Part shown: positions 14,769-15,056 of the stretch, piece after piece
Layout of the letters: each line of letters opens with the position of its first letter
How positions within the stretch are numbered: the first letter of the stretch is position 1
From: Escherichia coli
GTDB taxonomy: Bacteria; Pseudomonadota; Gammaproteobacteria; Enterobacterales; Enterobacteriaceae
Length of the DNA stretch: 64,000 nt
Strand: one strand, 5' to 3'
NCBI RefSeq assembly: GCF_003334405.1
Contig: NZ_QOWM01000002.1
Notes under the pieces: model-generated
What the model saw: the letters and a program-made list of their open reading frames with translations, nothing else
Databases searched by the model: none
Told to the model about the DNA's origin: nothing
Position numbers and translations under genes: made by a program

Positions 14769-14797
14769 GTTGCTGCCGCTAATCATTAGCGTTATAG
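14769..14797 (+). promoter_or_regulatory. Putative sigma70 promoter of the ribB leader
   Basis: TTGCTG-17bp-TATAGT immediately upstream of the FMN aptamer. Confidence 0.5.
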
Positions 14798-14804
14798 TGA
14801 ATCC

Positions 14805-15050
14805 GCTTATTCTCAGGGCGGGGCGAAATTCCCCACCGGCGGTAAATCAACTCAGTTGAAAGCCCGCGAGCGCTTTGGGTGCGAACTCAAAGGACAGCAG
14901 ATCCGGTGTAATTCCGGGGCCGACGGTTAGAGTCCGGATGGGAGAGAGTAACGATTCTGTCGGGCATGGACCCGCTCACGTTATTTTGGCTATATGCCGC
15001 CACTCCTAAGACTGCCCTGATTCTGGTAACCATAATTTTAGTGAGGTTTT
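14805..15050 (+). promoter_or_regulatory. sroG: FMN riboswitch (RFN element, sroG) in the ribB 5' leader
   Basis: Conserved RFN core visible: ...tctcagggcggggcgaaattccccaccggcggt...agcccgcgagcgc...gatccggtgtaattccggggccgacggttagagtccggatgggagagagt...; directly upstream of ribB. Confidence 0.9.
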
Positions 15051-15056
15051 TTTACC

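Follow-up and report, generated by a model that had tools for sequence, protein, structure and literature searches.

The region upstream of ribB in the 64,000-nucleotide stretch of Escherichia coli DNA analyzed here (the window) is the E. coli ribB FMN (RFN) riboswitch leader, which bears the gene name sroG and diverges from ubiK. The element is already known: its sequence is that of the textbook ribB FMN riboswitch of E. coli. It is almost certain that the region is best explained in full as a 252-nt ribB leader, in which the FMN riboswitch is combined with a stem sequestering the start codon and with control by Rho. No observation counts against the identification, and the limits concern the computed mechanism.

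Identity of the leader and its promoter

The sequence was scanned with cmscan against all 4227 Rfam families. The FMN family RF00050 matched the plus strand at 14805-14953 with 120.9 bits (E value 1.1e-27; gathering score 66.2), covering model positions 1-138 of 138 without truncation, and this match is far beyond chance. The covariance model thus bears out the initial annotation, which had recognized an RFN aptamer from three conserved segments. These segments are located at 14817-14843 (GGCGGGGCGAAATTCCCCACCGGCGGT), 14900-14927 (GATCCGGTGTAATTCCGGGGCCGACGGT) and 14931-14949 (AGTCCGGATGGGAGAGAGT), and each of the strings quoted there occurs exactly once within the window. When the Rfam consensus was mapped on the sequence, 27 of the 28 pairs were canonical, the sole exception being G68-A92 in P3.

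The 601 bases from 14600 to 15200 are 100% identical to many E. coli chromosomes, among them the K-12-derived ER1709, and are found at 99% identity or more in all 5426 of the 5426 complete E. coli genomes, where the annotation reads riboswitch, ribB and ubiK. Furthermore, the "FMN riboswitch" annotated by PGAP in ER1709 maps exactly onto the interval matched by RF00050. The divergent arrangement of ribB and ubiK that had been claimed is present (Table 1). The riboswitch lies 5′ of a riboflavin biosynthesis gene on the same strand, and the aptamer ends 103 nt (14954-15056) short of the ribB ATG. This agrees with an expression platform previously put at about 100 nt and said to end in TTTTTTTACC, a string found at 15047-15056, directly before the ATG at 15057. 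A usher gene near the element is intact in the window and interrupted by IS2 in ER1709.

A promoter of the form TTGCTG-17-TATAGT had been proposed upstream of the aptamer. Both strings and their spacing are as claimed; the motif is, however, weak, with 8 of 12 consensus positions, and it is not among the hits of the promoter scan, which lists sites from 9 of 12 positions. A single strand of the window carries an 8/12 site roughly every 322 nt, so that the hexamers alone are no better than chance. This pair is the only plus-strand site of that level between about 14700 and 14810. The TTG of the −35-like hexamer is kept at the 17-nt spacing in Escherichia, Citrobacter, Enterobacter and Providencia, and TATAGT is identical in seven of eight Enterobacterales leaders (TATATT in Providencia) at a fixed distance to P1. 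Conservation of the promoter hexamers is restricted to the Enterobacterales. A weak sigma-70-type promoter is therefore plausible, backed by its position, by this conservation and by the published numbering of the transcript.

The transcription start was placed at 14805, an assignment that we infer from two agreeing observations and consider well supported. With this +1, the leader measures 252 nt, the AUG begins at nt 253, and the leader plus ten codons comes to 282 nt, which is the length of the published transcript of the same RNA ("FL 282 nt"; Eschbach 2024, PMC11571811). In the same numbering the published anti*-P1 helix (nt 141-149 with 175-183) forms nine of nine pairs, of which exactly two are G-C (G149:C175 and C148:G176). 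The published pause at nt 247-249 would correspond to 15051-15053, and the AUG adjoins it. The putative +1 lies 121 nt from the ubiK start codon. Hence, of the interval 14769-15056 that had been described as the leader, the part from 14805 on would be RNA, and 14769-14804 would be promoter DNA.

Table 1. Features of the ribB leader and of its surroundings, in window positions; nt numbers count from the putative +1 at 14805.
Feature	Position	Strand	Remarks
−35-like hexamer TTGCTG, putative ribB promoter	14770-14775	+	3/6 to TTGACA
−10 hexamer TATAGT	14793-14798	+	5/6 to TATAAT; 17-nt spacer; ends 6 nt before the putative +1
ribB leader/sroG +1 (putative)	14805	+	set from published numbering rather than from a mapped 5′ end
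FMN riboswitch aptamer (RFN element), stems P1-P6	14805-14953	+	RF00050, PGAP, covariation; first 149 nt
P1 5′ strand UUAUUCUC, nt 3-10	14807-14814	+	pairs with 14944-14951
UCAGGGC, nt 9-15, P1 5′ end and J1/2; anti-P1 5′ strand (ON)	14813-14819	+	pairs with 15014-15020
P1 3′ strand GAGAGUAA, nt 140-147	14944-14951	+	pairs with 14807-14814
anti*-P1 5′ strand AGAGUAACG, nt 141-149	14945-14953	+	overlaps P1 3′ strand; pairs with 14979-14987
C-rich, G-poor part of the platform, nt 171-230	14975-15034	+	from composition; candidate Rho-loading (rut) region
anti*-P1 3′ strand CGUUAUUUU, nt 175-183	14979-14987	+	published pauses at nt 175 and 181 fall inside
Switch sequence GCCCUGAUUCUGGUAA	15014-15029	+	anti-P1 3′ strand (15014-15020) and sequestering-stem 5′ strand (15017-15029)
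Shine-Dalgarno GAGG, nt 239-242	15043-15046	+	read from sequence; 10 nt before ATG
Sequestering-stem 3′ strand UUACCAUGAAUCAG, nt 248-261	15052-15065	+	holds ribB AUG and codons 2-3
ribB CDS	15057-15710	+	ORF; WP_001076997.1; 3,4-dihydroxy-2-butanone-4-phosphate synthase, 217 aa; regulated gene
Terminator-like hairpin and T-run 3′ of ribB	15741-15772	+	terminator scan; transcription-unit end
ubiK (yqiC)	14393-14683	−	mapped from ER1709 annotation; contained in a longer 116-aa ORF
yqiD	15972-16142	+	mapped from ER1709 annotation
zupT	16200-16973	−	mapped from ER1709 annotation

Conservation of the aptamer and of the expression platform

The DNA pattern CCGACGGTNNNAGTCCGGATGRRAGA, taken from the aptamer core, was matched by at least 120 contigs of genomes spread over many phyla, and a RibB homolog is encoded directly downstream in about 45 of the 120 motif loci listed. 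For a closer comparison, 15 gammaproteobacterial ribB leaders were aligned, from Escherichia, Citrobacter, Enterobacter, Acerihabitans, Providencia, Photorhabdus, Aeromonas, Shewanella, Vibrio, Enterovibrio and one metagenome-assembled genome (MAG). Within the aptamer, the core blocks AGGGC-GGG of J1/2, CCACCGGCGGU, GCCCGCGAGC, CAGCAGA, GCCGACGGU and AGUCCGGAUG-AGAG are invariant in all of them, and the P1 helix is 97.5% paired. The OFF structure as a whole is 94.2% paired over the 15 leaders and contains 17 pairs changed on both sides, a result that none of 500 shuffles equaled; the slid controls were all paired at 54.5% or less. The compensatory changes are concentrated in the P2 extension (five of five pairs), in P3 (seven of eight) and in P4 (three of five).

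Beyond the aptamer core, only two blocks are invariant in the 15 leaders, namely GCCCTG.TTCTGGT at 15014-15027 and ACCATGAATCAG at 15054-15065. The linker from the aptamer to the switch sequence varies both in length and in sequence. The leader also contains an ATG-initiated ORF of 46 aa (14966-15106) that overlaps the ribB start, and regulation could in principle proceed through the translation of such a leader peptide. We give practically no credence to this reading: the ORF has no Shine-Dalgarno-like sequence, its AUG being preceded by GUCGGGC, and it occupies the stretch of the platform with the lowest conservation, where indels that are not multiples of three occur even among Enterobacteriaceae and no alignment exists beyond them. 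The ORF was thus rejected on both counts, conservation and Shine-Dalgarno. A pyrimidine tract (CUCCU, or CCCUCUU in Vibrio and Shewanella) is always located 0-6 nt before GCCCUG. In the C-rich tract of the platform, ACUCCUAAGACUGCCCUG is kept across the Enterobacterales, and nt 191-220 comprise 12 C and 5 G; from its composition, the whole tract from nt 171 to 230 would suit a rut site.

The two invariant blocks coincide with the strands of two competing helices, whose conservation was scored in the same alignment. In the start-codon-sequestering stem, pairing amounts to 95.4% and 10 of the 13 pairs are the same in every leader, while anti-P1, the helix formed between the 5′ part of the aptamer and the switch sequence, is 97.1% paired. 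No compensatory changes were seen in the sequestering stem or in anti-P1 among the 15 leaders, both being essentially invariant. Their conservation is consistent with the model of mutually exclusive pairings, and covariation gives no proof of it; it could also reflect constraints on the aptamer core and on the N-terminal codons Met-Asn-Gln of RibB. In an alignment-free duplex search, which left out the leaders of V. mexicanus and Enterovibrio with their variant J1/2, 12 of the 13 leaders scored showed overlapping platform partners for anti-P1 and the sequestering strand.

The picture differs for the anti*-P1 helix, for which conservation has been claimed (PMC11571811); it falls in a poorly alignable stretch and is 71.7% paired in the 15 leaders. 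In a crude duplex test it performed no better than composition-preserving shuffles (p 0.17-0.93). Likewise, a candidate helix between GGGAG (nt 136-140, in J6/1 and the 3′ strand of P1) and CUCCU (nt 199-203) was no better than shuffles (p 0.13-0.70). This comparison indicates that the conserved platform consists only of the switch sequence GCCCUGAUUCUGGU and its partner at the start codon, which is consistent with the published model of anti-P1 and sequestration.

Alternative helices at the ribB start codon

The helices were then followed in minimum-energy folds of the nascent RNA. P1 is present in the fold of the first 150 nt. At 235 and 247 nt, the fold contains anti-P1 instead, and P1 is destroyed. 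The anti-P1 helix consists of seven Watson-Crick pairs between UCAGGGC (14813-14819) and GCCCUGA (nt 210-216, 15014-15020), and it shares bases both with P1 (nt 9-10) and with the sequestering strand (nt 213-216). This computed helix corresponds to the anti-P1 of the literature, its exact register having been deduced in this analysis. Its presence at 247 nt fits the weak sensing of FMN by complexes halted at that position (PMC11571811). The anti*-P1 helix is part of the unconstrained minimum-energy fold; it has been described and mutated experimentally, and mutations at nt 175-176 change FMN sensing (PMC11571811).

The sequestering stem joins CUGAUUCUGGUAA (15017-15029) to UUACCAUGAAUCAG through 13 Watson-Crick pairs with one bulged U, and buries the AUG. 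The hairpin forms as soon as nt 248-262 exist, and it forms as well if the aptamer is held folded to mimic bound FMN. The Shine-Dalgarno sequence is weakly paired in an inner apical hairpin (nt 230-235 with 239-244).

The folding energy of the whole leader carries no information either way, being unremarkable when compared with shuffles (z −0.61). Furthermore, the sequestering stem is present even when the full leader is folded to minimum energy without constraints, and enforcing the ON model costs 4.9 kcal/mol of stability. Equilibrium folding of the full leader therefore does not show the ON state, which appears in the folds of nascent length only. According to these calculations, the ON state would require kinetic, co-transcriptional folding and translation, as the literature proposes.

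The leader ends in a run of seven U (15047-15053) that follows the small inner hairpin, and the aptamer family is common to B. subtilis ribD. Both features would be expected if FMN binding induced an intrinsic terminator hairpin with the U-run as its tail, in the manner of ribD. Such a mechanism is extremely improbable here. The terminator scan detected no G+C-rich hairpin with a T-run, and hence no intrinsic terminator, in the leader (14805-15056), its only nearby hits lying within ubiK, on the minus strand of ribB and at the ribB terminator. The inner hairpin is made of A-U and G-U pairs only and is 75.5% paired across species, and the U-run is not conserved, other leaders reading TCTTTT, TTTCATTT, GGAGTTT and similar strings. 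Its position is between the Shine-Dalgarno sequence and the AUG. Moreover, E. coli riboswitches are stated in published work to do without intrinsic terminators, and ribB to make use of Rho (PMC11571811, PMC5499598). The U-run is thus no terminator tail, which refines the initial annotation; it is the spacer between GAGG and AUG, and its last two U's together with ACC belong to the 3′ strand of the sequestering stem. Premature 3′ ends upstream of ribB would be Rho-dependent and not intrinsic, as expected from the published translational sequestration and Rho-dependent termination.

Regulation of ribB and comparison with other riboswitches

The response of this RNA to FMN has been studied experimentally. 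At the transcription complex halted at nt 175 (EC-175), the Kswitch for FMN is 23 nM with this exact sequence, and the pause at nt 175 has an approximately 330-fold advantage in FMN sensing over the one at nt 247, EC-247 being refractory to the ligand (PMC11571811). FMN shields from RNase H the 3′ region of P1 (probe 137-146; Kswitch 176 nM) and the 5′ strand of the sequestering stem (nt 215-227; Kswitch 206 nM for nt 218-227). Concomitantly, nt 184-193 become more accessible, for which the authors propose a link to Rho (PMC11571811). In live cells, photoaffinity labelling of the riboswitch was outcompeted by roseoflavin (PMC9204756). FMN blocks the initiation of translation and causes Rho-dependent termination (PMC11571811, PMC5499598, PMC10085680). 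The Rho termination score of ribB is 3.1 by RNA polymerase occupancy (ChIP), and the rho R66S mutation abolishes this control (PMC5499598). In single-molecule experiments on the ribB leader, ribocil-C increased Rho-dependent termination through the stand-by route by 7.0 percentage points and changed the other two routes by −3.0 and +0.9, and background termination in Rho-free assays on mgtA and ribB templates was just 6-16% (PMC10085680). Finally, deletion of the riboswitch leads to more ribB mRNA and riboflavin (PMC9885008).

The following model unites the aptamer membership, the E. coli identity, the alternative helices with their in silico order, the conservation and the missing intrinsic terminator, all computed here, with the FMN binding, the FMN protection of P1 and of the sequestering stem, the pauses and the Rho dependence taken from the literature; we infer the exact +1, the promoter, the exact register of anti-P1 and the location of the rut site. 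Transcription would start at about 14805 from the weak sigma-70-type promoter, and the first 149 nt would fold into the six-stem FMN aptamer. Binding of FMN while the RNA polymerase is still in the leader would lock P1 (14807-14814 with 14944-14951), so that the switch sequence at 15014-15029 would be free to pair with UUACCAUGAAUCAG (15052-15065). The resulting 13-bp stem is predicted to bury the start codon, with the Shine-Dalgarno sequence in the apical hairpin, and to block translation initiation. The untranslated C-rich platform may then be open to Rho, leading to termination inside the leader or soon after the start of ribB. In the absence of FMN, anti*-P1 (14945-14953 with 14979-14987) and anti-P1 (14813-14819 with 15014-15020) would replace P1, and anti-P1 would take CUGA (15017-15020) away from the sequestering strand, leaving the start site accessible for the synthesis of RibB. 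The short leader RNA terminated or processed in this way would be the catalogued sRNA SroG.

The name sroG and the origin of the locus have been described (PMC7456131, PMC6242692, PMC9885008). A different reading would make the free SroG RNA the main product, acting in trans by targeting other mRNAs or by buffering FMN, with the cis control of ribB being secondary. According to PMC7456131 (citing Vogel 2003) and PMC6242692, the leader is catalogued as an sRNA gene and a derived short RNA has been detected, and the function of SroG is termed unknown in the literature (PMC7456131). We nevertheless regard a primary role in trans as quite unlikely, because deletion of the element de-represses ribB in cis (PMC9885008) and because the deleterious effect of CRISPRi on sroG was ascribed by its authors to blocked initiation of the essential ribB mRNA (PMC6242692). 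In about 45 of the 120 genomes listed, a ribB homolog directly follows the element, and the switch is complementary to the start codon, both in keeping with cis logic. A trans-acting SroG is compatible with the cis riboswitch explanation and does not exclude it; there is a slim chance that the terminated or processed leader (about 14805-14955 and beyond) has a role of its own in trans, through mRNA pairing or FMN buffering. Some Listeria SAM riboswitch leaders act in trans.

The significance of the cis-acting riboswitch identified here is limited to the correct annotation of the region, everything else being already established for the exact sequence. The element controls an essential gene of the riboflavin pathway and is a validated antibacterial target (ribocil, roseoflavin), and the ribB leader serves as a model for co-transcriptional, Rho-coupled riboswitch control. 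The ribB riboswitch (sroG) of E. coli K-12 is the same element: coordinates, numbering and helices all agree with the published construct, and there is no difference in the element itself. It is reportedly the subject of Winkler 2002, Hollands 2012 and Pedrolli 2015. The aptamer recurs in ribB leaders of Vibrio, Shewanella, Aeromonas and other Enterobacterales, together with the invariant GCCCUGAUUCUGGU switch and the invariant ACCAUGAAUCAG at the start codon; these leaders differ in the platform 5′ of the Shine-Dalgarno sequence, which measures 79-140 nt, and in the size of the P2 and P3 hairpins.

The FMN riboswitch of Bacillus subtilis ribD (rib operon) has the same RF00050 aptamer family, ligand and pathway and is also an OFF switch. 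Its platform, however, is an intrinsic terminator/antiterminator (PMC11571811), whereas the E. coli ribB leader lacks an intrinsic terminator and uses a start-codon-sequestering stem and Rho instead. The thiM, thiC and tbpA TPP riboswitches and the lysC lysine riboswitch of E. coli differ from ribB in their aptamers and ligands but follow the same logic, in that sensing is co-transcriptional, the sensing window ends at a pause near the start codon, and anti-P1, sequestration and Rho are involved (PMC5499598, PMC5234074, PMC10946432). Within this common logic, the control by Rho has been described as direct at ribB, through exposure of the rut site, and at thiM as indirect, following the inhibition of translation (PMC5499598).

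FMN-aptamer cores in other genomes

Genome contigs were searched with a 26-nt pattern of the FMN-aptamer core, and at least 120 loci were found to carry it. The matches listed come from Actinomycetota, Chloroflexota, Clostridia, Bacteroidales, Chlorobiaceae and Desulfobacterota, as well as in Alpha-, Beta- and Gammaproteobacteria and others. A RibB homolog lies immediately downstream in only about 45 of these 120 matches; at the remaining loci the regulated gene is presumably another rib gene or a transporter. In the symbiont Candidatus Enterovibrio escacola, the unit of FMN riboswitch plus ribB is located on pMJ3, a 25-kb record that bears a plasmid label.

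Small RNAs and the region downstream of ribB

Scanning the window against Rfam revealed two SIB_RNA copies arranged in tandem. These RF00113 matches are Sib RNAs, which serve as the antitoxin in a type I toxin-antitoxin pair, and the short ORFs of the Ibs toxins would be antisense to them. The ES173 match exceeded its gathering score narrowly (99 versus 90 bits). At the second naRNA4/CssrE site both strands scored, as a palindromic element of the REP type would be expected to do. Downstream of ribB, a terminator-like hairpin precedes yqiD, a small gene that is longer in the ORF list, reaching a TTG at 15948.

Features located by the analysis (window coordinates, except for pMJ3)
Feature	Position	Strand	Remarks
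SIB_RNA (RF00113), copy 1	5584-5733	+	full-length Rfam match, 142.1 bits
SIB_RNA (RF00113), copy 2	5959-6108	+	full-length Rfam match, 147.7 bits
Fimbrial usher ORF	10994-13507	-	837 aa, uninterrupted (ORF list)
ygiL	13558-14109	-	
Terminator-like hairpin	15741-15772	+	13 bp with T-run, starts 31 nt past ribB stop
yqiD	15972-16142	+	56 aa as annotated
ES173 sRNA (RF02753)	42939-43002	-	full-length Rfam match, 99 bits
naRNA4/CssrE (RF02564), site 1	48783-48853	+	Rfam match
naRNA4/CssrE (RF02564), site 2	59823-59899	both	Rfam matches, 92.6 and 60.1 bits
FMN-aptamer core, pMJ3 (locus L011)	1806-1831	-	26-nt pattern match

Fimbrial genes and strain lineage

Direct reading of the sequence showed that the spacer between ygiL and the 3′ end of ubiK (14110-14392) is strongly AT-rich; the ygiL fimbrial operon presumably has its regulatory region there. 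The state of the neighbouring usher gene places the window in E. coli but outside the K-12 lineage: the window copy is intact, whereas its counterpart in the K-12-derived ER1709 is split by an IS2 adjoining ygiL.
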